Origin: Desulfatiglandales bacterium
GTDB lineage: Bacteria > Desulfobacterota > DSM-4660 > Desulfatiglandales > Desulfatiglandaceae
Direction: 5' to 3'
Assembly (NCBI GenBank): GCA_963662465.1
Contig: OY759599.1
Location: forward strand, 3,264,001 to 3,328,000
Length of the DNA stretch: 64,000 nt
This document shows positions 33,168 to 62,325 of the stretch, in pieces. How positions within the stretch are numbered: position 1 is the stretch's first letter; every line of letters begins with the position of its first letter. The notes under the pieces were generated by a model. It worked only from the letters and a program-made list of their open reading frames with translations, was not told where the DNA came from and made no database searches. The translations under genes were made by a program, and so were the position numbers.

Positions 33168-35393
33168 TGCGACGTGATGTCGCGTAAGTAGCTGTTTTGT
33201 ATATCAATATAAACCATATAACAAAACCCTGTTTTCTGCAACAGGTATTCTACCGGGACATGCGTCCGGAGTAATCCGGGGGTGTGAAGCTCTCGGGACA
33301 ATGAAGCCCGCGGAATTTTCCGGGAGAGGAAACCGTGAGGGGACCTCAACTCTGCAAGCATCATGCGGTAAGGGAGCTAGAATTGAGCAGTACGGTTAAC
33401 ACATGTGAATCGCTGCAGCGTCGTCACGAGAACAAGCCTAAGATGCTGAAAGGCTTGGACCAAAAAAGGTACGTGGCCAGGAACGGAGGCTGCGAACTCC
33501 TCCGTCGCGGATGTTGTGCCACCGGCGTAAAGGCGGAACCTAACCTGCTCTGGTACTTACGCGGAACATGGTAAGCCCGTAATCCTCCCCACGGGGAAAG
33601 CGAACCGCAAGGTGAGCCCATGGGGTTGCGGGTAAAGGATGTCAGAAAAAGCGAATGCCTCGTTGTAATGATGGGGATACGGATTGAAGGTGTAACTACC
33701 TACATGATCCGGCTCGAAAGAGAGCAGACTTCTGACCGGTGTTCCATTGCGAGATAATCTGTCGAATCTTTAAACAGGGGAAAGCAAATGACGGTGGCCG
33801 TTTTGGCGACTGGTGCACCTTTGGACGGAACAAACTGGTGGAAATCCATAAACTGGAAAACCGTCGGCGAGCACGTTAGAAGACTGCAGGTGCGTATCGC
33901 AAAGGCTGTGAAGGAAAAGCGATGGGGAAAAGTCAAGGTGATACAGTGGCTTTTGACTCATTCGTTTTATGCCAAGTTGTTGGCTATCAAGCGCGTTACT
34001 TCCAACCGGGGTAAACGCACACCGGGAGTGGATAAAGTCATATGGTCCACCCACATTGACAAAATGCAGGCGGTAAACGACCTGCGCCGAAGAGCCTACC
34101 GACCCAAACCGCTGCGCCGAATTTACATACCCAAGAAAAACGGCAAGAAACGCCCATTGGGCATTCCCACAATGAAGGACAGAGCCATGCAGGCGTTGTA
34201 CAAATTGGCGCTTGATCCGGTGGCGGAAACCACCGCCGATCCGAACTCTTACGGGTTCAGACCCTATCGGGGATGTGCGGATGCCATCGGTCAGTGTTTT
34301 ATTTCTCTGGCCAAGCGCCACTCACCCGTATGGATTCTGGAGGGAGATATAAAGGCCTGTTTTGATGAAATCAGCCATCAATGGATGCTCGAAAATATCC
34401 CTATGGATAAACGGACGCTTCAGAAATGGCTGAAATCCGGTTATGTGGAAGGAGGCAAGCTCTATCCAACTTACAGAGGAACCCCGCAAGGCGGGATTAT
34501 CTCTCCAACATTGGCTAATATGGTCCTGGATGGTCTGGAAGCGGCAGCCAAAAGTACCGCCCCGATAAGAATCCAGGGCAATATACGGTCCAAGATAAAC
34601 GTAATCCGTTACGCTGATGATTTCATCATCACCGGGAATTCCAGAGAGATGCTAAATGAGATCAAGCTGGAAATTGAAGCATTTATGGAGCGAAGAGGAC
34701 TTTCGCTTTCAGCGGAAAAGACGTTGATCACAAGGATAGAAGAAGGATTTGATTTTCTCGGACAGAATCCACGCAAATACCAGGGGAAGCTCTTGATAAA
34801 GCCCTCTCGCAAAAACGTGAAAGCCTTTTTAGGCAATATCCGGCAAACAATCCGAAAGCATGCGGCATCAAGAGCCGACATTCTGATTAAAGTACTCAAT
34901 CCCAAAATCAGGGGGTGGGCCAATTACCACAGGCATGTGGTTTCCGGTAGAACTTTCGGGCTTGTAGATCACCGTATCTACAGCTATATTTGGCAATGGA
35001 TGAGGAGGAAACATTCGGGCAAGAGTAAGAGTTGGCTGGTGGATAAATACTGGTCAAAAGGATCTCGCCCGTGGTCCTTTTCAGCGGTGATCAAGGACGG
35101 CTATGCGAAATCCGCCAGAATTGAACTTGAGAAAGCTTACGACGTCAAGATAAAACGCCATGTCAAAATTCGAGGGGATGCGAACCCCTTCGATCCGAAA
35201 TATGAACAATATTTCAGGAAACGATATGCCCAACGCAGTCAGCAGAAGGCAGACAGGCGTAAAGAGCATAAAACGTCACAACCGGGTAGCCCCGAAAGGG
35301 CTTGCCTTTGGAATGCTTGAGCCGTGTGCGTTTAACGGCGCACGCACGGTTCTTAGAGGGCTGGGGGATGGTGACATCCCCTGGCTACTCGAC
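33167..35393 (+). mobile_element. group II intron 1 (IIB-like, RT-encoding)
   Basis: 5' GTGCG; 34-nt domain V with AGC triad (35319-35352); domain VI ending CTACTCGAC. Removal gives GTTCGCC, exact complement of the cassette's own GGCGAAC (38094). Confidence 0.92.
33788..35320 (+). CDS. ltrA: group II intron reverse transcriptase/maturase, no C-terminal HNH endonuclease
   Basis: N-terminal RLQVRIAKA...TPGVD, RPLGIPT..DRAMQ, GTPQGGIISP.LAN, RYADDF, maturase LNPKIRGWANY; ends shortly after ANPFDP with no CxxC/HNH. Confidence 0.95.
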   Translation: MTVAVLATGAPLDGTNWWKSINWKTVGEHVRRLQVRIAKAVKEKRWGKVKVIQWLLTHSFYAKLLAIKRVTSNRGKRTPGVDKVIWSTHIDKMQAVNDLRRRAYRPKPLRRIYIPKKNGKKRPLGIPTMKDRAMQALYKLALDPVAETTADPNSYGFRPYRGCADAIGQCFISLAKRHSPVWILEGDIKACFDEISHQWMLENIPMDKRTLQKWLKSGYVEGGKLYPTYRGTPQGGIISPTLANMVLDGLEAAAKSTAPIRIQGNIRSKINVIRYADDFIITGNSREMLNEIKLEIEAFMERRGLSLSAEKTLITRIEEGFDFLGQNPRKYQGKLLIKPSRKNVKAFLGNIRQTIRKHAASRADILIKVLNPKIRGWANYHRHVVSGRTFGLVDHRIYSYIWQWMRRKHSGKSKSWLVDKYWSKGSRPWSFSAVIKDGYAKSARIELEKAYDVKIKRHVKIRGDANPFDPKYEQYFRKRYAQRSQQKADRRKEHKTSQPGSPERACLWNA

Positions 35394-42292: not shown

Positions 42293-42348
42293 CACGATTT
42301 TTGGCGTGAAATGATAAGCCCGGCACTACGAAATCAACGCATTGGAAC

Positions 42349-42434
42349 CGCGAACCAAGCGCTGCACCAGACGCCTGATAATTGGGCGGTCCCAGCGGGG
42401 GCCGGAGGAGGCGCTGGTGAGCTTAACGTTCGAG
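42349..42434 (+). repeat. attC site (86-bp family)
   Basis: CGCGAAC ... GTTCGAG. Confidence 0.9.
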
Positions 42435-43399
42435 TTGCGACACGAAGTCGCTTTAAATATATGTTTTCACAGAAGAATCGTGGAAACCCGGTGTTCCTCC
42501 ACCGGCATCCTAGGGAGGCATGCTGCCGTTGCGCTGATGACGGGGTGTGAAGCCCTCCCGACAATGTACCGAGGACCTTTGAAGTTGGAAAGTCGGGACA
42601 GAAAGCGTGAGTGGACTGTTCCTCTGGAAGCCTCATCCGGATTAGGGCTGGGATTGACTGATATGGTCAGTATATTCAAACACCTGCAGTATCGTAAACA
42701 GCAACAAGCCAAAGAGGCCGATAGGCTTGGACCAAACGGTGTGCGGCCAGGTCGGGAGTCTCGAACGTACGCCCGGCGCGGATGTTGTGCCGCCGGTATA
42801 GGGGGTGGACCTAAGTCAGTTAACAGTATTTATTGCGGAACGTGGTAAGCTCGTAACATCGCCATAAAGTTTTGTGGCAAGCCAACCGTGAGGCAGGCCG
42901 CTGGTGTTGCGGGTGCAAAACGCCTTACCAAGCCAATGCCCTCCTGAATGGGTGGGATACGGAGTTATCTCCGGCCCGAAAGGGAGCTGAATTTTGGCGG
43001 GTGCTCATGCGTGAGATAATTTGAAGAACCTTCTGATGGGAGAATAGCAAATGAGGGGTCTTCGTGACTGGTACACTTCCACAACAAGCTCCAAACTGGC
43101 AACTCATTAACTGGGATGTCGTCAAGAGTAACGTGAAAAGGCTTCAAATGCGTATTGCGCAGGCGGTTAAGGCGCAAAGATGGAAAAAGTGAAGGCTCTA
43201 CAGTGGCTTCTCTCCCATTCCTTCTCTGCGAAGTTATTGGCAAAAAAGGCCAAGAATGTTCGCCTTGCTTAGCCAATAACAACCGCCGGACTCTTCTGAT
43301 GAGAAAGGGTCTTACTGAGGGCTTGAGCCGTATGCTGGGAAACTCGCGTCTACGGTTCTGAGGAGGGAAGGAGGCCGGATGGCCTCCGACCTATCCGGT
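42435..43399 (+). mobile_element. group II intron 2, ORF-less (internally deleted RT)
   Basis: 5' TTGCG; frameshifted RT N-terminal remnant NWQLINWDVVKSNVKRLQMRIAQAVK/KVKALQWLLSHSF (~43051-43250); domain V 43325-43358; domain VI ending CTATCCGGT. Confidence 0.88.
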
Positions 43400-49926: not shown

Positions 49927-50262
49927 ATGAAATGGAACATTAAATATTTCAGCTCAAAACTGGAAGAGGAAATTCTTGCCCTCCCGGATGGATTGCTGGC
50001 GCGGTACTTACGATTAACCGATTTGATGGTTGAGTTTGGTCCAAACCTGGGTCCCCCTCATACAAAGTCATTTGGAAATGCTCTTTTTGAATTACGGATC
50101 AAAAGCAAGGAAGGGATCGCCCGCGTTTTCTTCTGCACAAAAACCGGCAGGAAAATCATCATGCTGCATGTTTTCATAAAGAAAACCCAAAAGACGCCAA
50201 AAAAAGAGATAAACATCGCAAGGACCCGAATGAATGAGGTAACGCAAGATGGATCATTCTGA
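49927..50262 (+). CDS. RelE/HigB-like (phage Gp49-type) toxin
   Basis: GPNLGPPHTK...LFELR....IARVFF...MLHVFIKKTQKTP. Confidence 0.88.
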   Translation: MKWNIKYFSSKLEEEILALPDGLLARYLRLTDLMVEFGPNLGPPHTKSFGNALFELRIKSKEGIARVFFCTKTGRKIIMLHVFIKKTQKTPKKEINIARTRMNEVTQDGSF

Positions 50263-50551
50263 ATTGAAGGAAAAGGCGTTAAAGAGAAAAAGTGTTAAAG
50301 CTGCCTATGAGGCCCTCGAAACTGAATTCTCACTGCTCCGTGAACTGCTGAAAGCACGCCAGAATGCGGGCCTGACCCAGGCGGAGATTGCGGAGCGTAT
50401 GGGAACGAAAGCCCCCGCCGTTACAAGACTCGAATCGTCATTAAGCAGCGGAAAGCATTCGCCTTCTATTGCAACCCTTAAGAAGTATGCACAGGCATTG
50501 GGGTGCCGTCTGGAAATAAAGGTTGTCGCCGATAATAACCCATCGCCTTGA
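50249..50551 (+). CDS. HTH (HigA/Xre-type) antitoxin
   Basis: ARQNAGLTQAEIAERMGT...RLES...SPSIATLKKYA.ALG; overlaps the toxin. Confidence 0.88.
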   Translation: MDHSELKEKALKRKSVKAAYEALETEFSLLRELLKARQNAGLTQAEIAERMGTKAPAVTRLESSLSSGKHSPSIATLKKYAQALGCRLEIKVVADNNPSP

Positions 50552-50597
50552 TATCTGTAGAAATAATCACAACGATATCAAATAATTACCTTGAATC

Positions 50598-50683
50598 GCA
50601 CAACCAAACGCTGCACCGGACCCCTAGACGCAACGGGGTAATGGGGACGTTGGGTGCAGGGGCCGGTGAGCTTGTCGTTGGAT
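50598..50683 (+). repeat. attC site
   Basis: GCACAAC (exact complement of GTTGTGC at 45834) ... GTTGGA. Confidence 0.9.
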
Positions 50684-51935
50684 TGCGACACGATGTCGCA
50701 TAGTTTGAGTGTATTCATGTAGTTACATGTAGTACCCGGTATGTTCCTACCGGACCCTACGCAGGCATGCTGCCGTTGCGCTGATGACGGGGTGTGAAGC
50801 CCTGCGGACAACGTACCGAATCGGGTTCAAATGGCGACAGGAGAACCCCTCCGGGAATCCTCCCGGTTAAGGGCTAGGGTCGGATGATATGGTGAAGGTA
50901 TCTGAATGTCTTTAAGCGTCGATTACAAGCGAAGGGCCTACGAGGATTAATAGGTCTTATGCCGCTGCCCAGTGTCAGCGGATGTGGTCAGGTTGCAGGT
51001 CTGCTAACGGCCTGCACGGAACTGTTGTACCACCGGCGTAGAGGGCGCACCTAAGTCATCCACAGGATCAACTATGTGGAACGTGGAAACCCGTTCCCGT
51101 CGCCCCCTTTGGGGGCAGGCTAACGTAAGGCATGCTGTTGGCGGGCCGGAGTAGGAGGCTGAAAAAAGCGAATGCCGGGCTGTAATGGTCCGGATACCGG
51201 GTGAAACATTCCCGGCTCCGTAAGGAGGCAGACGTTCAGCGCGGTGCCCGATTACGTGAACACCGGAGGAATCAGATGAAAGCGGGGAAAGCAGCCAGTG
51301 AAACGGGCGAATGACGGCCCTTGAGGCTGGTGCGCCCCGTATGCCTTTGGCTACTCTGACAACCGGCCTGTAACGTGAAGTGGATGCAAATCCGCGGGAA
51401 TCCCCACCAGGGAAACCTTTTCGGGGGCTTGAGCCACGTGAGGTGAAAGCCTCATGCGTGGTTCTGAGGGTAATAGCGGCATAATACACACCTCCGTACG
51501 TTATTGAAAATTAAAGACTTGTTGTTTTGAGTTTCTTGAAAGCGGGCTCTTTGGAAACCCGGAATGAGCTGCCTTTTTTATCACTTCAGATTCAAGGTCC
51601 TTTTTTGAAATGATCCATGGAGCACCGGAACATACTCGCTTGGCGGGTAGAATCTCATGTTGTATAAGTCTCCAAACTTTGGTGCTGCCAATACCCAGCC
51701 TTTCGCTTGCTTCAGCTACCGTATATTCTTCTCGTCGCTGCCTCTCTCCTTCATGATATACAGGGATATTATGCCTATTTCGAAATGAACGCAACCTTAC
51801 CGGATTCCAGGTATATCCCTTTGTAGTCTTTGTACCCACACGGTTGAGAAAGGCCACGATGTGTTTATCAGGCATAATTCTAGCCAAATCGGCTAAAGCG
51901 TCATTATACGGTTGGATCCATCAGCAGCTTTAGCC

Positions 51936-53798
51936 TCACTGCAATGTGCGAGGAGCACGGCTACTGGCTGCTTTCTTGATGCGATGATTCATCTGATCCG
52001 TCCTAACCAAACGTCTATCTGCTGTCGATAGAGATGCTGTAGAAAGCTGAAGCTCTTTTTTAAGATTCACAATTTCTTGGGAAGGCAGCCATTTATTCTT
52101 CCTATTCCGGTTTTCCATATCTAATTGCGCGAATGCAAGAGGAAGCTGATCGATCGATCCACAAACTATATTGACGTAATCGGCGTGTTCCAGATTATAT
52201 GCCAGAGCCGCTTCTGCCGGTAGATGTTCCAGATCCTGACCAAGATTTTTCCGTCCACTGCGCCGTCGTTCTCCATGCTTCATTGTTCCAAAGAAGTTTT
52301 CGAGCAGTTCGTTGGTTCGACTCATAAGCCGTATGCCGCCGCCTGTTCTTTCCGGCAAACATATGCTGTGCCCCCAAAGACTATCACCATGCGTGTCAAT
52401 ATGTTTGATTATAATATCAATAGCTTCCCGAATATCTTTTCCCGGGCCTCGTTTTGGCCGGCGATCTTTAAGGGCAGTCGTCCATGTTTCAAACTGATAC
52501 CGCATCTCGTTAAGGTCTTCTATTGATTCCTTATCCGGGAGTTCTTTTGCCAACCGCAATTGATTTCGCAGCTCATCGAATAAAGCAGCACGGCGGTGCA
52601 ACTGTTTGACAGTTTGACGAAAGGGCACTTCACAAGAAACCTTCGAAGCGATCCTCCTAAGCCGACGAATCATGCGCACAACATGCTTATCATTCGGAGG
52701 AATGCGAAGAAATGCATCTATTGCTCGCAGAGCAACCATACACCTGTTGAAAAAACTCAAATACGGTCTGTCAAAAGGAAAATCCAGGCCTGAAAGATCT
52801 GCCTTATAGTCGATTATCCACTGTGCTATGTTTCGTACAACGGCAAGGCCATCTCGTCCCGGTGGGAGACGATAGTCATCCCTCTCTTGCCAATCCAGAA
52901 CCGCCTGCCGTGTTTCATTGATCTCAAAGCCTATCTCTCGCCCGATCTCACGGACTAAGTTATTGATTTTAGGTCGTACTTTTGTACGCCGGAAATGGTC
53001 CCGCAAAGCGGAATGGTCAGGTTTTATAAGGTCTTTACCAATGTCGGCAAGAAAGTGTTGATGGCAAGCTAACACGGGTATATCCAATTGCATCTCAGAT
53101 ACGAGTTCGTCGATGGCCGGCGATACCGCGCGTCCCAAGTCGCGCATGGCTCCGCAAGGCGGGCCGAATCGACTGACCGTATCCCGCATGCAGGGTAACA
53201 AAAGATCGGCTCGTTCAGTTGAAATTTTCCAGGCGCCAAGCACCCATTTTCTCCAACCAGCCATCACAACAAATAGGGTCCCTCGACCGGCTTCTCCAGT
53301 GGCATCCACTTGCATCGGCCAACCCCCATCCGCCTCCAGGACCCCTTTCAATTGCTCAGCCCGCACGTGATGAAGTCTGAGCAAGTATTCCAAAAAGTAT
53401 CGTGTCAGATTGCTAACCTCACCGCAAGACAATTTGATGCCGTGCCTTTCCTTTAATTCTGCTTTTATTTCCTCTCTCTGTTTATAGCCGAGCAGCCTAT
53501 TGAGACCCACATAAACCATTACGTCATAACCGACAATGCCGTTTGGCATAATGGTCCGAACGACCGATTCTGCTCTCTTGGTAAACAATGTCCCATCATC
53601 ATTACGGCACCGCTCCGAACATACATGTACCGTTTCCCTAACATTAAACGTACCATGCTCGATGGTCCGTCCTTCATGCACAAACGTTTTTTGTACACGC
53701 ATCGGTCCATTGCAGAGTTCACATACCCCAACCTCATCCTTAGCAGATACAACGATATCCGCTAACCCGACCACTTGTTTAAAACAACTATCATTCAA
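51936..53798 (-). CDS. putative DDE transposase (IS OrfB)
   Basis: CELC, MQVDATGE, AMRDLG, CHQHF, RTNELLENFF motifs inside the TIRs. Confidence 0.8.
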   Translation of the reverse strand: MNDSCFKQVVGLADIVVSAKDEVGVCELCNGPMRVQKTFVHEGRTIEHGTFNVRETVHVCSERCRNDDGTLFTKRAESVVRTIMPNGIVGYDVMVYVGLNRLLGYKQREEIKAELKERHGIKLSCGEVSNLTRYFLEYLLRLHHVRAEQLKGVLEADGGWPMQVDATGEAGRGTLFVVMAGWRKWVLGAWKISTERADLLLPCMRDTVSRFGPPCGAMRDLGRAVSPAIDELVSEMQLDIPVLACHQHFLADIGKDLIKPDHSALRDHFRRTKVRPKINNLVREIGREIGFEINETRQAVLDWQERDDYRLPPGRDGLAVVRNIAQWIIDYKADLSGLDFPFDRPYLSFFNRCMVALRAIDAFLRIPPNDKHVVRMIRRLRRIASKVSCEVPFRQTVKQLHRRAALFDELRNQLRLAKELPDKESIEDLNEMRYQFETWTTALKDRRPKRGPGKDIREAIDIIIKHIDTHGDSLWGHSICLPERTGGGIRLMSRTNELLENFFGTMKHGERRRSGRKNLGQDLEHLPAEAALAYNLEHADYVNIVCGSIDQLPLAFAQLDMENRNRKNKWLPSQEIVNLKKELQLSTASLSTADRRLVRTDQMNHRIKKAASSRAPRTLQ

Positions 53799-53833
53799 AC
53801 GATGCGCCTGATGCCTTAGGTAGACCAGCGTTT

Positions 53834-54526
53834 TCAGCGGAATCTTGACGTTTTTTTTTCTGCTTGAATGCCATGTTCTGAAAAAATCCGGTTCACCTGA
53901 TCGACAGTGACGGCCAATCCCCGAACGGCGAGGCGGGTTGCTATTTCAGATTGAGATACAATAACTTGGCCCGCCTTCAGCGCTTCCACAAGAACAGCAA
54001 TGGTCGTTTCCATTGGGACCGGCCCGACAATTTGAACCCCTTCTTGTATATGTACGCGACGCGCCGCTATTTGCACTTTTCCTTTATCCGGATCTCCATT
54101 GGTATATAAGGAAAGCCCTTCGGATCGGTGCCGACTTATCTGCTGGGATTGAACCAGCCCATGAAGCGTGTTGTGCAACGTGTTGGGAATCCGAATCTTC
54201 AACAAATGCAACAGCTCTTTCGGTGTCATTCCGGCATTCGATAAATGCACAATTTCCACCACAGTCGCTTTTAGCGTGCCGGCCTTTGAAAAGCCGATTC
54301 CCCGATAAAACCACAAACCCCAAGAATCAAACGAAGGAATATCCTCAAGGGTGTAGTAACGACCGGCATCCGTAAAGCTTGTCAAGTATCCGATAAGTTT
54401 AAGCCTCCGGAATACACTCATCCGAGAACTTGTTTTCAGTACATGGAAGAGCTGATTGAGATCTGCGATGTATTTCTTCCTAAACCATTTATGTAAAGCC
54501 TTTTTGGAGTCTTCAGGAGATAACAT
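53834..54526 (-). CDS. IS OrfA, probable DNA-binding part; A9 slippery site at its end
   Basis: Inside the TIRs; ends GCA GAA AAA AAA ACG and overlaps the open -1 frame of OrfB. Confidence 0.75.
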   Translation of the reverse strand: MLSPEDSKKALHKWFRKKYIADLNQLFHVLKTSSRMSVFRRLKLIGYLTSFTDAGRYYTLEDIPSFDSWGLWFYRGIGFSKAGTLKATVVEIVHLSNAGMTPKELLHLLKIRIPNTLHNTLHGLVQSQQISRHRSEGLSLYTNGDPDKGKVQIAARRVHIQEGVQIVGPVPMETTIAVLVEALKAGQVIVSQSEIATRLAVRGLAVTVDQVNRIFSEHGIQAEKKTSRFR

Positions 54527-56610
54527 GTGACCTCTGATACATTTATTTGTTTTCTGTGGCTATTTCCAAATAAATGTATCAAAATGCCAATTGCTTGTCA
54601 ATCCTCCAATTCAATAAAATCAAGTGGTTACTGAAATATAAGGTTTGTTTCCCAGCGTTTGTGTGGTACAATTATGAAAAAAATATCAAAGATAATACCG
54701 TTAATTCAATGGCTTATTGAATCCAACCGTATCCTGACGCTGTAGCAAATCGGATATTATCTTTTTTGTATCAACATCGGTTTTCAATGGGTAACTGGAA
54801 GACTTATTCTTCAGTACCTCCAATTCCGTATGCTCACCCCCTTCCCAGTGAATGATTAATTTGATCTTTTGCTCTTCCAAATAAACAACGATCTCTTTGA
54901 TAACCGTCCGGATTATACGCTTCTTTAAATCCAAAGAGCAACACGGATTATTCCATACACGAGGTAAATCTTGTGACAGATCTCTGATCTCGGTCTCTTC
55001 CTCAGGGGAAAGCGAAGGGGTGTTCGACCCCATAGCGGTAATCTCATTCTCCAACCTTGCTACCTTAACAAGAGCGTCATTCCAATCCTTCTCCAATGTA
55101 GATGCTACCAAACGATTATCAGGGTCCACTGCATTGTATTGACGTTTTGCCCGTAAAGCTTCATAACGCGCTTGTTCCAACTCCAGTTCCCGTTGCCGTT
55201 TCACTGAATCCGATTCATGGTTGATTTTCTTTATCGCCTCTAAAGAAGCTTCTAATCCTATCGGTGATAATACTTTCAAAAGAAAATCCGTAACAGCCCG
55301 GTCAACACGGAATCCACCAAATGATATACACGCCTTTCCTGTCTCGTTACCTCGTTTGCGGCTACACTCATAACGTTTATGAGTTCCATTACGGCCTTGG
55401 TATCGTACAATTAACTTTCTGCCGCAATGACCGCATCTTAACAAACCTCCAAGCAATGCCTTTCCTCCGCGAACAGCTCCTCTCACCACCGGCCTTTTCT
55501 TATTTGTATTTTGAGTTAGTATCTCCATGTTATACTGGTACTCTTCCCATGTGATGTAACCTTCATGGTGATCCAATATTAAAACGTCCCAATCCTTTTG
55601 TTCCTTACGAATACCCTTCCTCAGTCGCTTGCGCCCATTTTCAAAAGTTACCTCTGTTTTAGTCCGGCCATAGACGTAGGCGCCGGCGTAAATTGGGTTG
55701 TTCACTATATGCGACAAGGTATGAGCAGACGGTAGTTTCCACTCTATCCTACGTTCCCCTTTACCGCTGGAAACAACAGCAATCTCAATCTGTTCATCTA
55801 AAAACCAATGATACACCCGACGAAGAGTACCATATTCCTTGAATTTCGTGAATACCAAATCAATGACTTCTTGAATTCGTTTGTCAGGATTCTTTTTCAG
55901 CTTATTATCCCTAGTCTTTATATAGGCTGCCGGTACAGTAAGATATAATTCTCCCCGCTTCGCTTTTTGTTGTATTGCCGCCTGAGAACGCTCCTTTAAT
56001 AGGCTCAATTCCATTGCACTCATTTCTCCCTTTAAGCCCAGGAGCAAACGATCATTTGACACGTTTAGGTCATAAACAGCTCCTTGATCTACAAGAACCG
56101 TTTTTTTAAGTGCACAGATCTCAAGCAACGTATGCCACTCTCGACCGTTGCGGGCCAACCTCGATGATTCAATCGAGAAAATACCCCCTATTCTTCCTTC
56201 ACACACAGATGAAAGAAGATTCTGGAATCCTTTTCTGTCAACGCATCCCGATGCAGTTATTCCCAAATCACTATCTATCATCCATATGTTTTTCTCGTTC
56301 CATCCTAATTCTTTTGCCCTTTCTACCAAGCCATATTGTAAAAGTTGGCTTTCACGATGCTGTAGAACTTGGCCCGGTGTTGACTGACGGATATATATAC
56401 ATGCTTCCCGACTAATATGTTCAGCATTGATTTTATTGCTCATGCTCATTTCCACCTTTCTTTTCTCGAAATGTCAACCGAAAATTGACCTCTTGCGACA
56501 ACCGAATTTTGCCCCCACATGAGTAATTGTAACCTGCGACGCGGTCATAGAAGGCTCCGGTGGCTCCTGCCGAAATATCCATTAAAAGAGCGACCATAAC
56601 CGCACCTTAG

Positions 56611-56817
56611 TCAGCTTCCGACCAGATAATCATCTGGTAAGTCGAGAAAACCCTTTTTCGTCGCTAATTCGAGTTCAATCAAATACCCTATCTCGCCTTT
56701 CATTTTGATCTGTGAAACCATCCACTTCGGTAACCGAATCGTGACGGGGATACGCCTCAGATGTTCAGGACTCCTTTTTCGACCAGCGCCTTTTCGACTC
56801 CCACCTCTCATTTTCAT
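56611..56817 (-). CDS. small putative DNA-binding protein (copy 1)
   Basis: RGGSRKGAGRK then VTIRLP; identical to 61366-61572. Confidence 0.65.
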   Translation of the reverse strand: MKMRGGSRKGAGRKRSPEHLRRIPVTIRLPKWMVSQIKMKGEIGYLIELELATKKGFLDLPDDYLVGS

Positions 56818-57618
56818 CGCTCCTTTTCACCTTCAAATTCGTCCAATATTTTTGAATACCGCGTACGTTTTTCAATTAAACACCTATTTCTATCGGAAAA
56901 TAAGGTATTTATGATTTATAGTTACGATTTTTCTGAGTCGGATTAAGCTGCTTGCTTCAACAACTCCAGTCTCTTGACTGCTTCCAATATCAGACCGCGA
57001 TTTTACGTTAGTGAAACTACTTCTCTTTTCTATTTCTGTTACCCTCAGAATTTTGCCAGAAACCTGACAGAAGCTCTGCAAGGAAATCAATCAATCTATT
57101 TCGTGTTTCTATTGGAATTTCGATCGGTGATGGTAAATAATCCCAAAGCCGAAGTTGATGATATTTTTGTTTCGTCATCTTTCCTCCTTGTTTTCGAATT
57201 GACTTCATCAGGAGGAAACGGTATTTTTCTATTCACTATTAAGCAATATAAATTCTTAAGCGCCCTGATTTCGATAGCGGGTTTTGAGCCGAGGGATATC
57301 TTTTCATACTTTGGATTGGTCATCCACGCAGGTATCAATTCATGGCGACCATCAGGTTTCTTTGTTACAAAACAAGTTTCTCCACGATGGTTTCTGGTAC
57401 CTACCACATAAATTTCTTCACCGGTTCTTGGGTGAAATGGGTAATATACCCGAGTTATAAACTGGTTTTGATGGGCATTATATAGTGGTTCTGAGGGGGC
57501 TCGGGGATGGCAACATCCCCCGGCTACCCGGCCCCCCCCTCAAAATCCAACGATTTACCTTGACAAACAGTCTTACTGTTGTACAATTGTCCAAAAAGCA
57601 TTTAGATGAAGGTAAAAT

Positions 57619-58011
57619 ATGGACATTGTAATTGACACATCAGCACTGATTGCGGTGATCGTTGGTGAACCACAACGTACCAAAATAATAGAAATAACGT
57701 CAGGAAATACACTGATTGGTCCAGGATCTATTCCGTGGGAAATTGGTAACGCATTTTCGGCTATGTTCAAGCGAAAAAGGCTGTCACTTGAGGAAGCGAA
57801 AAAAGGGTTTTCAATCTTCGATAGCATCCCCATTCGATACATTGAGACTGATTTTATAAGTGTTCTAAACATATCAAAACGAGCAGCTATGTATGCATAC
57901 GATGCCTATTTTTTGGATTGTGCATCAAGGCAAAAAGCTCCTCTATTAACATTGGATCGAAGGTTAAAAGCCTCTGCCCAAGATTTTAAAATTGATACCA
58001 TGGAGGTTTAA
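57619..58011 (+). CDS. PIN-domain (VapC-like) toxin
   Basis: IVIDTSALIA, WEIGNA, AYDAYFL, LLTLD; TTGACA...TACAAT promoter upstream (~57560-57588). Confidence 0.9.
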   Translation: MDIVIDTSALIAVIVGEPQRTKIIEITSGNTLIGPGSIPWEIGNAFSAMFKRKRLSLEEAKKGFSIFDSIPIRYIETDFISVLNISKRAAMYAYDAYFLDCASRQKAPLLTLDRRLKASAQDFKIDTMEV

Positions 58012-58012
58012 A

Positions 58013-58231
58013 ATGCAAGTTTATACATATTCAGAAGCTCGTCAAAAGCTTGCTACGGTTCTTGAGCAGGCTGAAAATACAGGTAAAGTGATAATTCGAA
58101 GGAAAGATGGGAGAACGTTCTCCTTGGTTCCGGAAAAAGCTGCTACATCACCACTAAATGTTCCAACAATAAAAGCAAATATAACAACACAAGAAATAGT
58201 TGACATCATTCGCGAAGGAAGGGAAAGGTAG
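58013..58231 (+). CDS. Phd/YefM-family antitoxin
   Basis: YTYSEARQKLATVLEQA...VIIRRKDG; stop codon overlaps the attC. Confidence 0.88.
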   Translation: MQVYTYSEARQKLATVLEQAENTGKVIIRRKDGRTFSLVPEKAATSPLNVPTIKANITTQEIVDIIREGRER

Positions 58232-58313
58232 AACCAAACGCTGCACCAGACGCCTGATACTTGGGCGGTTCCAGCGGGGGCCGGCAGAGGCGCTGGTGAG
58301 CTAGACGTTAGCT
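58228..58313 (+). repeat. attC site (86-bp family)
   Basis: GTAGAAC ... GTTAGC. Confidence 0.9.
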
Positions 58314-59115
58314 TGCGACACGATGTCGCATAGTTTGAGTGTATTCATGTAGTTACATGTAGCACCCGGTATGTTCCTACCGGACCCTACGCAGGCATGC
58401 TGCCGTTGCGCTGATGACGGGGTGTGAAGCCCTGCGGACAACGTACCGAATCGGGTTCAAATGGCGACAGGAGAACCCCTCCGGGAATCCTCCCCGGTTA
58501 AGGGCTAGGGTCGGATGATATGGTGAAGGTATCTGAATGTCTTTAAGCGTCGATTACAAGCGAAGAGCCTACGAGGATTAATAGGTCTTATGCCGCTGCC
58601 CAGTGTCAGCGGATGTGGTCAGGTTGCAGGTCTGCTAACGGCCTGCACGGAACTGTTGTACCACCGGCGTAGAGGGCGCACCTAAGTCATCCACAGGATC
58701 AACTATGTGGAACGTGGAAACCCGGTCCCGTCGCCCCTTTTGGGGCAGGCTAACCGCAAGGCATGCTGTTGGCGGGCCGGAGTAGGAGGCTGAAAAAAGC
58801 GAATGCCGGGCTGTAATGGTCCGGATACCGGGTGAAACATTCCCGGCTCCGTAAGGAGGCAGACGTTCAGCGCGGTGCCCGATCACGTGAACACCGGAGG
58901 AATCAGATGAAAGCGGGGAAAGCAAATGACGGCCCTTGAGGCTGGTGCGCCCCGTGCGCCTTTGGCTATTCTGACAGCTGGCCTGTAACGTGAAGTGGAT
59001 GCAAATCTGCGGGAATCCCCACCAGGGAAACCTTTTCGGGGGCTTGAGCCACGTGAGGTGAAAGTCTCATGCGTGGTTCTGAGGGTAATAGCGGCATAAT
59101 ACACACCTCCGTACG

Positions 59116-61209
59116 TTATTGAAAATTAAAGACTTGTTGTTTTGAGTTTCTTGAAAGCGGGCTCTTTGGAAGCCCGGAATGAGCTGCCTTTTTTATCACT
59201 TCAGATTCAAGGTCCTTTTTTGAAATGATCCATGGAGCACCGGAACATACTCGCTTGGCGGGTAGAATCTCATGTTGTATAAGTCTCCAAACTTTGGTGC
59301 TGCCAATACCCAGCCTTTCGCTTGCTTCAGCTACCGTATATTCTTCTCGTCGCTGCCTCTCTCCTTCATGATATACAGGGATATTATGCCTATTTCGAAA
59401 TGAACGCAACCTTACCGGATTCCAGGTATATCCCTTTGTAGTCTTTGTACCCACACGGTTGAGAAAGGCCACGATGTGTTTATCAGGCATAATTCTAGCC
59501 AAATCGGATATTATCTTTTTTGTATCAACATCGGTTTTCAATGGGTAACTGGAAGACTTATTCTTCAATACCTCCAATTCCGTATGCTCACCCCCTTCCC
59601 AGTGAATGATTAATTTGATCTTTTGATCTTCCAAATAAACAACGATCTCTTTGATAACCGTCCGGATTATACGCTTCTTTAAATCCAAAGAGCAAAACGG
59701 ATCATTCCATACACGAGGTAAATCTTTTGATAGATCTCTGATCTCAGTCTCCTCCTCAGGGGAAAGCGAAGGGGTGTTCGATCCCATGGCGTCAACCTCA
59801 TTCTCCAATCTTGCTACCTTAACAAGAGCGTCATTCCAATCCTTCTCCAATGTAGATGCTACCAAACGATTATCAGGGTCTACTGCATTGTATTGACGTT
59901 TTGCCCGTAAAGCTTCATAACGCGCTTGTTCCAACTCCAGTTCCCGTTGCCGTTTCACTGAATCCGATTCATGGTTGATTTTCTTTATCGCCTCTAAAGA
60001 AGCTTCTAATCCTATCGGTGATAATACTTTCAAAAGAAAATCCGTAACAGCCCGGTCAACACGAAATCCACCAAATGATATACACGCCTTTCCTGTCTCG
60101 GTACCTCGTTTGCGGCTACACTCATAACGTTTATGAGTTCCATTACGGCCTTGGTATCGTACAATTAACTTTCTGCCGCAATGACCGCATCTTAACAAAC
60201 CTCCAAGCAATGCCTTTCCTCCGCGAACAGATCCTCTCACCACCGGCCTTTTCTTATTTGTATTTTGAGTTAGTATCTCCATGTTATACTGGTACTCTTC
60301 CCATGTGATGTAACCTTCATGGTGATCCAATATTAAAACGTCCCAATCCTTTTGTTCCTTACGAATACCCTTCCTCAGTCGCTTGCGCCCATTTTCAAAA
60401 GTTACCTCTGTTTTAGTCCGGCCATAGGCGTAGGCACCGGCGTAAATTGGGTTGTTCACTATATGCGAGAAGGTATGAGCAGACGGTAGTTTCCACTCTA
60501 TCCTACGTTCCCCTTTACCGCTGGAAACAACAGCAATCTCAATCTGTTTATCTAAAAACCAATGATACACCCGACGAAGGGTACCATATTCCTTGAATTT
60601 CGTGAATACCAAATCAATGACTTCTTGAATTCGTTTGTCAGGATTCTTTTTCAGCTTATTATCCCTGGTCTTTATATAGGCTGCCGGTACAGTAAGATAT
60701 AATTCTCCCCGCTTCGCTTTTTGTTGTATTGCCGCCTGAGAACGTTCCTTTAATAGGCTCAATTCCATTGCACTCATTTCTCCCTTTAAGCCCAGGAGCA
60801 AACGATCATTTGACACGTTTAGGTCATAAACAGCTCCTTGGTCTACAAGAACCGTTTTTTTAAGTGCACAGATCTCAAGCAACGTATGCCACTCTCGACC
60901 GTTGCGGGCCAACCTCGATGATTCAATCGAGAAAATACCCCCTATTCTTCCTTCACACACAGATGAAAGAAGATTCTGGAATCCTTTTCTGTCAACGCAT
61001 CCCGATGCAGTTATTCCCAAATCACTATCTATCATCCATATGTTTTTCTCGTTCCATCCTAATTCTTTTGCCCTTTCTACCAAGCCATATTGTAAAAGTT
61101 GGCTTTCACGATGCTGTAGAACTTGGCCCGGTGTTGACTGACGGATATATATACATGCTTCCCGACTAATATGTTCAGCATTGATTTTATTGCTCATGCT
61201 CATTTCCAC
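59116..61209 (-). CDS. large serine recombinase with zinc ribbon and C-terminal HTH (Y4bA-like)
   Basis: YIRQS catalytic motif, SRLARN, NPIYAG recombinase domain, LLRCGHCG...YEC, C-terminal YTVAEASERLGI. Confidence 0.95.
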   Translation of the reverse strand: MEMSMSNKINAEHISREACIYIRQSTPGQVLQHRESQLLQYGLVERAKELGWNEKNIWMIDSDLGITASGCVDRKGFQNLLSSVCEGRIGGIFSIESSRLARNGREWHTLLEICALKKTVLVDQGAVYDLNVSNDRLLLGLKGEMSAMELSLLKERSQAAIQQKAKRGELYLTVPAAYIKTRDNKLKKNPDKRIQEVIDLVFTKFKEYGTLRRVYHWFLDKQIEIAVVSSGKGERRIEWKLPSAHTFSHIVNNPIYAGAYAYGRTKTEVTFENGRKRLRKGIRKEQKDWDVLILDHHEGYITWEEYQYNMEILTQNTNKKRPVVRGSVRGGKALLGGLLRCGHCGRKLIVRYQGRNGTHKRYECSRKRGTETGKACISFGGFRVDRAVTDFLLKVLSPIGLEASLEAIKKINHESDSVKRQRELELEQARYEALRAKRQYNAVDPDNRLVASTLEKDWNDALVKVARLENEVDAMGSNTPSLSPEEETEIRDLSKDLPRVWNDPFCSLDLKKRIIRTVIKEIVVYLEDQKIKLIIHWEGGEHTELEVLKNKSSSYPLKTDVDTKKIISDLARIMPDKHIVAFLNRVGTKTTKGYTWNPVRLRSFRNRHNIPVYHEGERQRREEYTVAEASERLGIGSTKVWRLIQHEILPAKRVCSGAPWIISKKDLESEVIKKAAHSGLPKSPLSRNSKQQVFNFQ

Positions 61210-61365
61210 CTTTCTTTTCTCGAAATGTCAACCGAAAATTGACCTCTTGCGACAACCGAATTTTGACCCCCATATGAGTAATTGTAAGCTGCGACGAAGT
61301 CATAGAAGGCTCCGGTGGCTCCTGCCGAAATATCCATTAAAAGAGCGACCATAACCGCACCTTAG

Positions 61366-61572
61366 TCAGCTTCCGACCAGATAATCATCTGGTAAGTCGA
61401 GAAAACCCTTTTTCGTCGCTAATTCGAGTTCAATCAAATACCCTATCTCGCCTTTCATTTTGATCTGTGAAACCATCCACTTCGGTAACCGAATCGTGAC
61501 GGGGATACGCCTCAGATGTTCAGGACTCCTTTTTCGACCAGCGCCTTTTCGACTCCCACCTCTCATTTTCAT
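61366..61572 (-). CDS. small putative DNA-binding protein (copy 2)
   Basis: AAGGAG RBS; RGGSRKGAGRK, VTIRLP. Confidence 0.65.
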   Translation of the reverse strand: MKMRGGSRKGAGRKRSPEHLRRIPVTIRLPKWMVSQIKMKGEIGYLIELELATKKGFLDLPDDYLVGS

Positions 61573-61771
61573 CGCTCCTTTTCACCTTCAAATTCGTCCA
61601 ATATTTTTGAATACCGTGTACGTTTTTCAGTTAAACACCTATTTCTATCGGAAAATAAGCTATTTATGATTTATCGTTACGATTTTTCTGAGTCGGATTA
61701 AGCTGCTTGCTTCAACAACTCCAGTCTCTTGACTGCTTCCAATATCAGACCGCGATTTTACGTTAGTGAAA

Positions 61772-61963
61772 CTACTTCTCTTTTCTATTTCTGTTACCCT
61801 CAGAATTTTGCCAGAAACCTGACAGAAGCTCTGCAAGGAAATCAATCAATCTATTTCGTGTTTCTATTGGAATTTCGATCGGTGATGGTAAATAATCCCA
61901 AAGCCGAAGTTGATGATATTTTTGTTTCGTCATCTTTCCTCCTTGTTTTCGAATTGACTTCAT
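61772..61963 (-). CDS. small hypothetical protein of the recombinase element (copy 1 at 57017-57208)
   Basis: GGAGG before MTKQKY; identical in both copies. Confidence 0.55.
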   Translation of the reverse strand: MKSIRKQGGKMTKQKYHQLRLWDYLPSPIEIPIETRNRLIDFLAELLSGFWQNSEGNRNRKEK

Positions 61964-62252
61964 CAGGAGGAAACGGTATTTTTCTATTCACTATTAAGCA
62001 ATATAAATTCTTAAGCGCCCTGATTTCGATAGCGGGTTTTGAGCCGAGGGATATCTTTTCATACTTTGGATTGGTCATCCACGCAGGTATCAATTCATGG
62101 CGACCATCAGGTTTCTTTGTTACAAAACAAGTTTCTCCACGATGCTTTCTGGTACCTACCACATAAATTTCTTCACCGGTTCTTGGGTGAAATGGGTAAT
62201 ATACCCGAGTTATAAACTGGTTTTGATGGGCATTATATAGTGGTTCTGAGGG
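61851..62252 (-). CDS. start-less body of a DUF5372-like gene; 5' end supplied by 59086-59110 on circularisation (copy 1 at 57096-57497)
   Basis: YPFHPRTG...IPAWMT motif; frame open across the 13-bp core. Confidence 0.75.
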   Translation of the reverse strand, partial: PSEPLYNAHQNQFITRVYYPFHPRTGEEIYVVGTRKHRGETCFVTKKPDGRHELIPAWMTNPKYEKISLGSKPAIEIRALKNLYCLIVNRKIPFPPDEVNSKTRRKDDETKISSTSALGLFTITDRNSNRNTK

Positions 62253-62325
62253 GGCTCGGGGATGGCAACATCCCCCGGCTACCCGGCGTATTCTTTTAAG
62301 TGTGTCGAGAGATGGAGGAAAAACA

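Follow-up and report, generated by a model that had tools for sequence, protein, structure and literature searches.

The 64,000-nucleotide stretch of a Desulfatiglandales bacterium genome analysed here (contig OY759599.1; hereafter the window) carries, at 59073-62252, a 3,180-bp element that encodes a large serine recombinase (LSR) and is bounded at both ends by a 13-bp direct repeat, denoted as the core. One small gene of this element is divided between the two element ends. On the minus strand, the LSR stop codon TAA (59118-59116) is followed by five bases, a Shine-Dalgarno (SD)-like GGAGGTG (59110-59104), a spacer (59103-59098) and an ATG (59097-59095), which stands 18 nt after the LSR stop. 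The ATG and three further codons end at 59086, where the core (59085-59073) adjoins. At the other end of the element, the core opens a frame that has no start codon of its own (the start-less frame). Since 59097-59085 is a distance of 12 and 62564-62252 one of 312, each divisible by three, the core is read in the same codon phase at both ends, and the joined ends make up 4 + 133 = 137 codons, a gene directly downstream of the LSR. In the integrated state, the ATG at the recombinase end opens only a 43-codon frame into the flank, which belongs to an intron, and the first in-frame ATG, GTG or TTG of the start-less frame is a GTG at codon 31. For this reason, the open reading frame (ORF) of a second copy of the element in the window (copy 1; the copy described above is copy 2) begins at 57407 in the program-made ORF list. 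An earlier note, which was made from the sequence of the window, had described the SD-like motif, the 6-nt spacer and the ATG behind the recombinase stop, expected an in-frame product of 137 amino acids on circularisation, and reported the same layout for copy 1. The positions of the motif and the ATG are correct to the base, the product is borne out by the frame arithmetic, and copy 1 does have the same layout with identical ends. The start-less frame is open in 7 of 7 copies in the genome and in all 27 metagenome relatives that were retrieved. The observation of the split gene itself is confirmed.

The flank, which the earlier note had taken as ordinary chromosome, is a group II intron. The element is inserted in antisense orientation at the domain V/VI junction of an intron that has no ORF. 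On the plus strand, Rfam families RF02012 (domains I-IV) and RF00029 (domains V/VI) were matched beside both copies, with 78.1 and 75.5 bits for the former and 45.8 and 45.3 bits for the latter; the matches at copy 2 lie at 58365-58505 and 59044-59114, respectively, and the core overlaps the 3' strand of domain V. On the other side of the element, the sequence at 62253-62287 matches domain VI of an intact intron in the window (35340-35393) and of unoccupied introns, and the same junction is found in the unoccupied introns at G000 3334759 and 3354035. Based on the Rfam matches and the comparison with intact introns, the element flanks without the element form a canonical domain V plus domain VI. 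As the domain V-VI junction is rebuilt by removal of the element, the ends named above are the true recombination junctions. The coordinates of the features are collected in the table.

Table. Features of the split-gene element, its host intron and two plasmid relatives (window coordinates unless an accession is given).
Feature	Coordinates	Strand	Description
Right-end arm	59086-59115	-	SD-like GGAGGTG, 6-nt spacer, ATG plus three more codons, running into the core
Core, recombinase end (attR side), copy 2	59085-59073	-	CCCTCAGAACCAC; exact repeat of 62240-62252
Core, left end (attL side), copy 2	62252-62240	-	CCCTCAGAACCAC; first codons of the start-less frame
Split-gene body, start-less DUF5372-like frame	61851-62239	-	133 codons counted from the core; stop at 61851
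LSR	59116-61209	-	697 codons; Resolvase, Recombinase, Zn_ribbon_recom and C-terminal HTH_17/excisionase-like domains (Pfam, NCBIfam)
Small ORF (p63)	61772-61963	-	63 codons listed; inner ATG preceded by AAGGAGG
68-codon ORF	61366-61572	-	Within about 470 bp missing from compact metagenome relatives
Copy 1 of the element	51458-57497	-	Ends identical to copy 2; ATG 51482-51480
Host intron 5' part, domains I-V	58290-59072 (5' limit approximate)	+	Rfam; alignment of copy 1 with copy 2; domain V continues into the core
Host intron 3' part, domain VI and intron end	62253-62287	+	35 bases common to copies 1 and 2
IS21 istB relatives	L130 NZ_CP050297.1 123210-132542; L131 NZ_CP054622.1 99317-107613		Start-less ORF not in gene tables

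The core occurs exactly four times in the window (51458, 57485, 59073 and 62240), two per element copy, where 1.17 occurrences are expected by chance even with two mismatches allowed. In the whole genome, it is present 13 times, as five attR-type ends, six attL-type ends and two unoccupied introns. The seven element copies of the genome share 98.7-100% identity, while their outer flanks differ. The LSR is intact in six of the seven, and that of copy 1 is disrupted by a 2.85-kb insertion sequence (about 51893-54742). Copy c3 has a different intron variant as its host and shares only 11 nt of the core. Together with copy c7, it narrows the boundary between element and flank to the position between CCCT and CAGAACC, where the crossover would take place. 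The seven near-identical copies, two of which reside in other intron variants, show that the element is mobile within the genome. Copy c7 itself (G000:C1:6823236-6826415, outside the window) has ends that do not match each other, CGCACAGAACCAC on the left and CCCTGGGGG on the right, and its right flank is not an intron domain V; integration at a pseudo-site or a later rearrangement could explain this. The insertion sequence of copy 1 contains two minus-strand ORFs of 620 and 230 codons, and about 12 nt of the element occur on either side of it, which may represent a target duplication.

To be translated from an integrated copy, the start-less frame would need a start codon of its own or one in the flank. 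We compared start codons in 20 distinct sequences, drawn from the window and from 27 metagenome loci of the same subfamily (L011-L037), in which the LSR is 74-84% and the split gene 54-64% identical. The GTG at codon 31 is present in only one of the 20, the window's copy, and none of the 20 has an ATG, GTG or TTG before codon 17. Among changed codons, the synonymous share was 0.45 in codons 14-30 and 0.35 in codons 31-60. Considering that codons 14-30 lie upstream of every candidate start and yet exhibit a coding pattern, this region is under selection at the protein level. In the structure model described below, the first strand (residues 13-16) is likewise upstream of the internal GTG, so that a product from codon 31 would lack this strand and part of the next one. 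Flanks differ among the copies and do not offer a common start. Database homologues (n=19) have N-termini of very different length, many of which read RVAGG..., the antisense sequence of intron domain VI. These N-termini are variable and flank-derived because gene callers extended the start-less frames into the flanks; the predicted homologues, which form 343 clusters, range from 62 to 345 residues. In the canonical loci of the DUF5372 family, which are introduced below, 36 of 76 have no ATG, GTG or TTG in the 21 codons before the domain, and only three have an ATG. The commonest start-like codon there is a TTG five codons before the domain (21 of 76 loci), and an SD-like 4-mer lies upstream of only three of 56 start-like codons. 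As such, no start is conserved inside the frame, neither in the 20 sequences of the subfamily nor in the 76 canonical loci. A near-cognate start at codons 13-14 (Ile) was also considered and rejected, since several relatives have Phe-Val (TTT GTA) and no position is consistently ATT or ATA. In one annotated relative (L132 7713-7979, NZ_CP088102.1), the PGAP annotation lets a 'DUF5372 family protein' begin at a GTG two codons before the domain; the frame remains open for 24 further codons upstream and contains the conserved upstream residues of the family there, and judging from these residues the annotated start is probably arbitrary.

If the gene is completed by joining of the ends, both its initiation signals and its frame across the crossover should be retained in relatives. 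The stop codon, the SD-like motif with its spacing and the ATG are kept in all 14 metagenome loci with a complete LSR, and in 13 of 13 elements examined (the window and 12 metagenome relatives) the distance from the LSR stop to the ATG is 18 nt. In these 13 elements, we shifted the two ends along each other and noted the register with the longest identity. The in-frame register was the clear winner in five of them, namely the window's copy 2 (WIN2, 13 nt), L011 (6 nt), L027 (9 nt), L031 (10 nt) and L034 (9 nt); the other elements are taken up where the reading is weighed. Flanks of the relatives were recognised as antisense intron domains V and VI, by Rfam in seven loci and by eye in L036.

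The earlier note had called the product of the split gene DUF5372-like. Homology to canonical members stands at the level of profiles, since hhalign aligned a profile of close relatives with five canonical DUF5372 sequences at 90% probability and an E-value of 1.7e-6, whereas membership does not. Against Pfam DUF5372 (PF17342), the product scored 19.9 bits where the cut-off is 25 (E 7.8e-4; residues 18-61 on profile positions 2-45 of 78), and with a score below the cut-off the protein is a distant relative of the family rather than a member. A search of the phylum with PF17342 found six genomes, and in each of them the domain lies upstream of a recombinase, in a frame without a nearby start. 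For a broader set, one genome per species was scanned with the five canonical sequences, which gave 80 loci (L050-L129) from many phyla. An LSR is located downstream on the same strand in 73 of the 80, and the middle gene between DUF5372 and the LSR is DUF6788 in three of three tested. The order of a DUF5372-like gene, a small gene and an LSR is therefore common to the window element and the canonical loci. Canonical LSR genes end in a conserved SD-like GAGGTGCA; an ATG comes a few bases later and either overlaps the stop (ATGA) or closely follows it. By a loose pattern search, this site was found in 46 of 57 canonical loci, with some picks surely spurious, and six of the 11 misses showed the site once it was located through the flank.

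At least 37 of the 80 canonical loci split a group II intron reverse transcriptase (RT) gene at one motif (residues ~135-139 of the window's RT), in either orientation. Since the RT frame is continuous through the target, the split gene is in frame if and only if the RT phases are equal at both ends. The RT phase, taken once against the end ATG and once against the DUF5372 frame, was equal in 17 of 18 loci (12 plus, 6 minus). In the exception, L070, the script had chosen a flank ATG 17 nt past the one proximal to the SD-like motif, and with the proximal ATG the count becomes 18 of 18 by hand arithmetic. The 18 scored loci cover at least nine host groups, with six loci from one order; 19 further RT loci were unscored, 18 of them with RT on one side only and one in which no ATG was found. 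A fusion of the gene with the host RT was considered and rejected, because the RT frame is offset from the frame of the gene by phase 2 or 1 and never by 0.

A third kind of target emerged from P0112, a relative that starts at the domain and matches 95 plasmid records, mostly rhizobial; most of the listed matches are unannotated. On a Mesorhizobium plasmid, an unannotated frame is succeeded by a recombinase of 690 codons and then by a truncated IS21 istB. Translated on the opposite strand, the flanks give the Walker A region of IstB. Behind the recombinase stop there is again an SD-like motif with an ATG, and the IstB triplet phase is 1 at both ends by hand arithmetic, so the frame is kept. 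The layout recurs on an Azospirillum plasmid, where 31 open codons contain no start-like codon. The family thus has three target classes, the intron domain V/VI junction, the group II RT motif and IS21 istB. The numbers of codons before and after the crossover differ among the three classes, while their sum stays in frame; in the canonical classes, the exact crossover positions are themselves inferred. As the frame is kept despite differing targets, cores and arm lengths, we read this as selection on the reading frame. In the subfamily registers, the RT-phase loci and the istB relative alike, the crossover was found to leave the frame intact. Of the two outcomes that the earlier note had named as contrary to its reading, a crossover that breaks the frame and an internal start conserved in homologues, neither was observed.

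To see what the completed product may do, we examined a structure model of it and a predicted complex with the LSR. Residues ~11-95 were modelled at a predicted local distance difference test (pLDDT) above 90 and the tail was predicted as disordered. The modelled fold is a small SH3/KOW/Tudor-like barrel followed by a helix. A sequence search of the PDB gave no solved relative of the product, with a best E-value of 0.03 among chance matches. The predicted complex with the LSR scored 0.64, compared with 0.01 for the best of three controls. As a rough guide, since our own alignments were used, a score at this level is attained by 116 of 157 solved complexes and by two of 215 mismatched pairs. 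Three runs of the complex share at least 70% of their contacts, and the pLDDT of the partner was at least 68. The predicted interface comprises residues 335-345 (zinc ribbon), 393-406, 478-498 and 508-542 of the LSR, the last three being segments that enter and leave the coiled coil, and residues 21-23 and 67-90 of the partner. Directionality factors are reported to bind this region of LSRs (PMC5814800, PMC11795197 and PMC11722253). The modelled complex supports the view that the product of the split gene may be a cofactor acting on the recombinase, and it adds a predicted LSR interface to the role as a directionality or re-integration factor that the earlier note had suggested.

Taken together, we consider it probable that the split gene is completed only when the element ends are joined and that its product is a cofactor of the recombinase which reports the state of the element; the first part, completion by end joining alone, is supported by the comparisons of sequence given above. 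The element would be a minimal integrative element moved by its LSR, with the attachment site attP inside the 5' end of its own first gene. Integration would divide this gene some five codons from its beginning. What remains at the recombinase end, behind the LSR stop, would be the ribosome-binding site with the ATG and four or five codons, and the rest of the gene would be stranded without a start at the other end. Only a joined form, either the excised circle or a head-to-tail dimer, would restore a translatable gene of 137 codons downstream of the LSR. Its product, a small SH3-like protein, is predicted to bind the zinc ribbon of the LSR at the coiled-coil base. The cofactor would appear only after excision and tune the LSR for the free circle, and it would vanish automatically once integration splits the gene again. 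As for the direction of its effect, we favour a cofactor that licenses re-integration or blocks the excision mode, a preference that within this reading is about evenly balanced against the other possibilities. This preference has a simple ground: a factor that promotes excision would, if it appeared only once the element had been excised, impede its own circle. Formation of the circle, translation of the junction gene, binding of the protein and the direction of its effect are what we infer. In a wider and more tentative extension, to which we give somewhat less than an even chance, the DUF5372 superfamily would consist of three-gene LSR elements that parasitise mobile elements, in which gene splitting serves as a topology sensor and cofactors made only from the circle flip the LSR to integration mode. 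If so, these elements would switch themselves off on insertion and control directionality without host input.

Several observations weigh against completion by joining and against a role as a state-reporting cofactor. In the register test, six of the 13 elements were tied or had matches too short to decide, and in L017 (3 versus 6 nt) and L018 (4 versus 7 nt) the -1 register gave the longer match. L016, L017 and L018, however, are one element at three sites, whose right ends agree up to TCCA and whose left ends agree from CCAAG; this comparison places the crossover within the shared CCA, with the frame kept in L017 and L018, and the longer match out of register is explained by an apparent likeness of the flank to the element arm. 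When cores were sought in the canonical loci as longest common substrings, 31 loci had a match of at least 5 nt, of which 12 were in frame and 19 were not. With matches of at least 7 nt, six of seven were in frame; since chance 5-6-mers dominate such a search, it was replaced by the RT-phase test. The RT loci are in turn not independent trials, since the relatives share ancestry and may all go back to a single attP, and a recombinase that fixes the spacing of its attP would tend to make an established frame persist. Canonical attP sites contain an inverted pair GTGCA / TGCAC about 34 nt apart, for which the pair of the window's subfamily is GTATTATG / CATAATGC. From its sequence, the pair is a probable recombinase-binding motif, and it overlaps the SD-like motif; with this overlap, conservation of the SD-like motif may partly serve recombination. 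Against such a double role, neither GAGG nor the ATG is mirrored on the other attP arm, as judged by eye. About 22 of 150 homologue representatives listed begin right at the domain, 15 of them with Met, and an unsplit form probably exists among the DUF5372 relatives.

Further points of this kind come from the protein and from the search for the joined form. The complex with the LSR is a model prediction, and fold searches with the modelled product returned only generic SH3, KOW and Tudor-like barrels (best Foldseek E-value 0.016, best Z 5.0). The junction sequence expected of the joined form was absent from the genome assembly and from the fetched loci (107 related loci), an LSR end directly upstream of the gene was seen in none of the 80 canonical loci, and no contig with terminal repeats was found. 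The circle joint was also absent from the contigs of four sequencing runs, and as contigs drop rare forms, its absence there weighs neither way. The only joints in these runs, from 59072 to 62240 and from 59083 to 62250, represent the element-free form; because the genome carries unoccupied introns, they are no sign of excision. Contigs of RNA libraries cover parts of the element, which does not amount to a demonstration of transcription. A scan of the integrated sequence for promoters and terminators found no more sites than in shuffled sequence (seven promoter-like sites, 7.0 expected), and in this consensus scan no promoter-like site spanned an element end.

Among other explanations, the one that survives best accepts the split and takes the product for an ordinary recombination directionality factor (RDF) that is supplied in trans by free or tandem copies, which would leave integrated copies locked like the partitioned archaeal integrases, or else for a DNA-binding regulator of the operon. 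We regard this as possible, although rather unlikely. It would agree with the predicted interface, which lies where directionality factors are reported to bind (PMC5814800), and with a passage of PMC8371274 in which the partition of an archaeal integrase is described as an excision lock. In addition, another small gene, p63 in the window or DUF6788 in the canonical relatives, could fill the other role. However, a product that promoted excision but was made only afterwards would impede re-integration of the circle, and the seven near-identical copies, two of which are in other intron variants, show that the element moves within this genome. The sequence data are neutral on the direction of the effect.

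Less probable still, and in our view improbable, is that the product is also made from integrated copies, from a non-canonical, unrecognised or flank start, that the shared frame is an inherited accident, and that the SD-like motif and ATG at the end are part of the recombinase site or open an unrelated short ORF. The overlap of the SD-like motif with the inverted attP motif (by eye), a frame inherited through the spacing that the recombinase fixes, the roughly 22 of 150 listed representatives that start at the domain, the GTG start of PGAP in the single protein L132 and the TTG of 21 of the 76 canonical loci would all suit this explanation. It would nevertheless have to account for the lack of any conserved start-like codon (a GTG in one of 20 sequences, none in 36 of 76 loci, an SD-like 4-mer in three of 56), for coding sequence upstream of the candidate starts that forms the first strand of the fold, and for differing flanks without a common start. 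Nor would it predict that GAGG and the ATG lack a mirror image on the other attP arm, or that the frame is kept across three target classes whose cores and arm lengths differ. Finally, that the start-less frame is a decaying remnant without function would fit the lack of a start in the integrated state and the inactivation of copy 1 by an insertion sequence, but is hardly credible in view of a frame open in 7 of 7 copies and 27 metagenome relatives, the coding pattern of substitutions, a confident structure model and homologues in 343 clusters.

The LSR matches PF00239, PF07508 and PF13408 with 68.8, 46.3 and 33.1 bits, respectively, and all 13 of the 13 LSRs that were aligned have the serine of its RQST motif. 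At its C-terminus (window 59116-59320, residues ~624-668), an HTH_17/excisionase-like domain was matched at 31 bits by Pfam, and a match of TIGR01764 at 22.5 bits is below the cut-off of that model. Among serine integrases, an excisionase-like helix-turn-helix at the C-terminus is unusual; it may have a bearing on the choice of site or on directionality. The small ORF p63 and the 3' tail of the split gene overlap in different frames. By tblastn, p63 is conserved at 40-58% identity in 26 of the 27 metagenome loci (L011-L037), of which L035 and L036 stop short of it. In the compact 2.7-kb relatives, which do not contain the ~470 bp, the small ORF is directly followed by the LSR. The 63- and 68-codon ORFs matched no Pfam or NCBIfam family; the 68-codon ORF gave one weak match, to a PHROG of unknown function.

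Around the element, the 64 kb contain four plus-strand group II introns (33227-35393, 42487-43399, 50735-51499 and 58365-59114), one with an RT gene and three without an ORF. A similar stretch of about 70 nt precedes each ORF-less intron (42340-42440, 50593-50680 and 58223-58300) and may be a repeated homing site, for example a terminator-like or attC-like stem-loop. Toxin-antitoxin-like pairs are located between introns, at 49927-50551 and 57619-58231.

If the probable reading is true, the element senses whether it is inserted or free through the physical wholeness of one gene, a mode of directionality control that to our knowledge is undescribed for serine integrases. Serine integrases are widely used as genome-engineering tools, and the small protein would then represent a new kind of integrase partner. 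Since frames without a start are left unannotated or are given arbitrary N-termini, such genes are easily passed over; in four RefSeq plasmid regions that we examined, the listed gene tables have no gene for the start-less frames. Recombinase elements that reside inside other selfish elements, at the most conserved sequences of their hosts, apparently represent an undescribed way of life. In the literature searched, no mention of DUF5372 or DUF6788 was found in main texts (supplements excluded), and as judged by titles, nothing concerned serine recombinase elements in group II introns or a case that combines attP, circular form and start codon.

RDFs of large serine integrases, such as gp3 of phiC31 and SprB of SPbeta, are small proteins encoded beside the integrase. 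They bind the zinc domain of the integrase near the coiled coil, and the interface predicted here is in the same region. In contrast with them, the split-gene product has no sequence relation or clear fold relation to any solved protein. Moreover, the integrated prophage needs its RDF gene and carries it whole in the known cases, whereas this gene is whole only after excision. Tn4451 is moved by a large serine recombinase (TnpX) via a circular intermediate. Expression from a promoter at a junction, or from one that is repositioned, has been described for Tn4451/TnpX (Lyras and Rood 2000) and, in passages of PMC13023037, for ICEclc Pcirc, ICEKp1 P3'end and insertion sequence circles. The split gene resembles Tn4451/Tn4453 and the other circle-junction promoters in that expression depends on the joining of two ends. 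While a promoter is assembled or repositioned in those systems, here the coding sequence is divided and it is translation initiation that would be restored; parts of the review of integrative and conjugative elements PMC5812530 do not mention a reconstituted element gene. In elements of the skin in sigK type, precise LSR excision restores a reading frame (in a passage of PMC5025042). The restored gene belongs to the host in that case, whereas here it is a gene of the element itself, and the domain V-VI junction of the host intron is restored along with it. The closest likeness is to the SSV-type ('suicidal') tyrosine integrases found in viruses and plasmids of archaea, where attP lies in a gene of the element and the gene is whole only in the free form; these integrases are partitioned on integration and perhaps unable to excise without an external complete copy, as described in a passage of PMC8371274. 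In the SSV type, the tyrosine integrase itself is split into two large parts. In the element described here, the serine recombinase stays whole and a small accessory gene is split, with the ribosome site and about five codons parted from its body.

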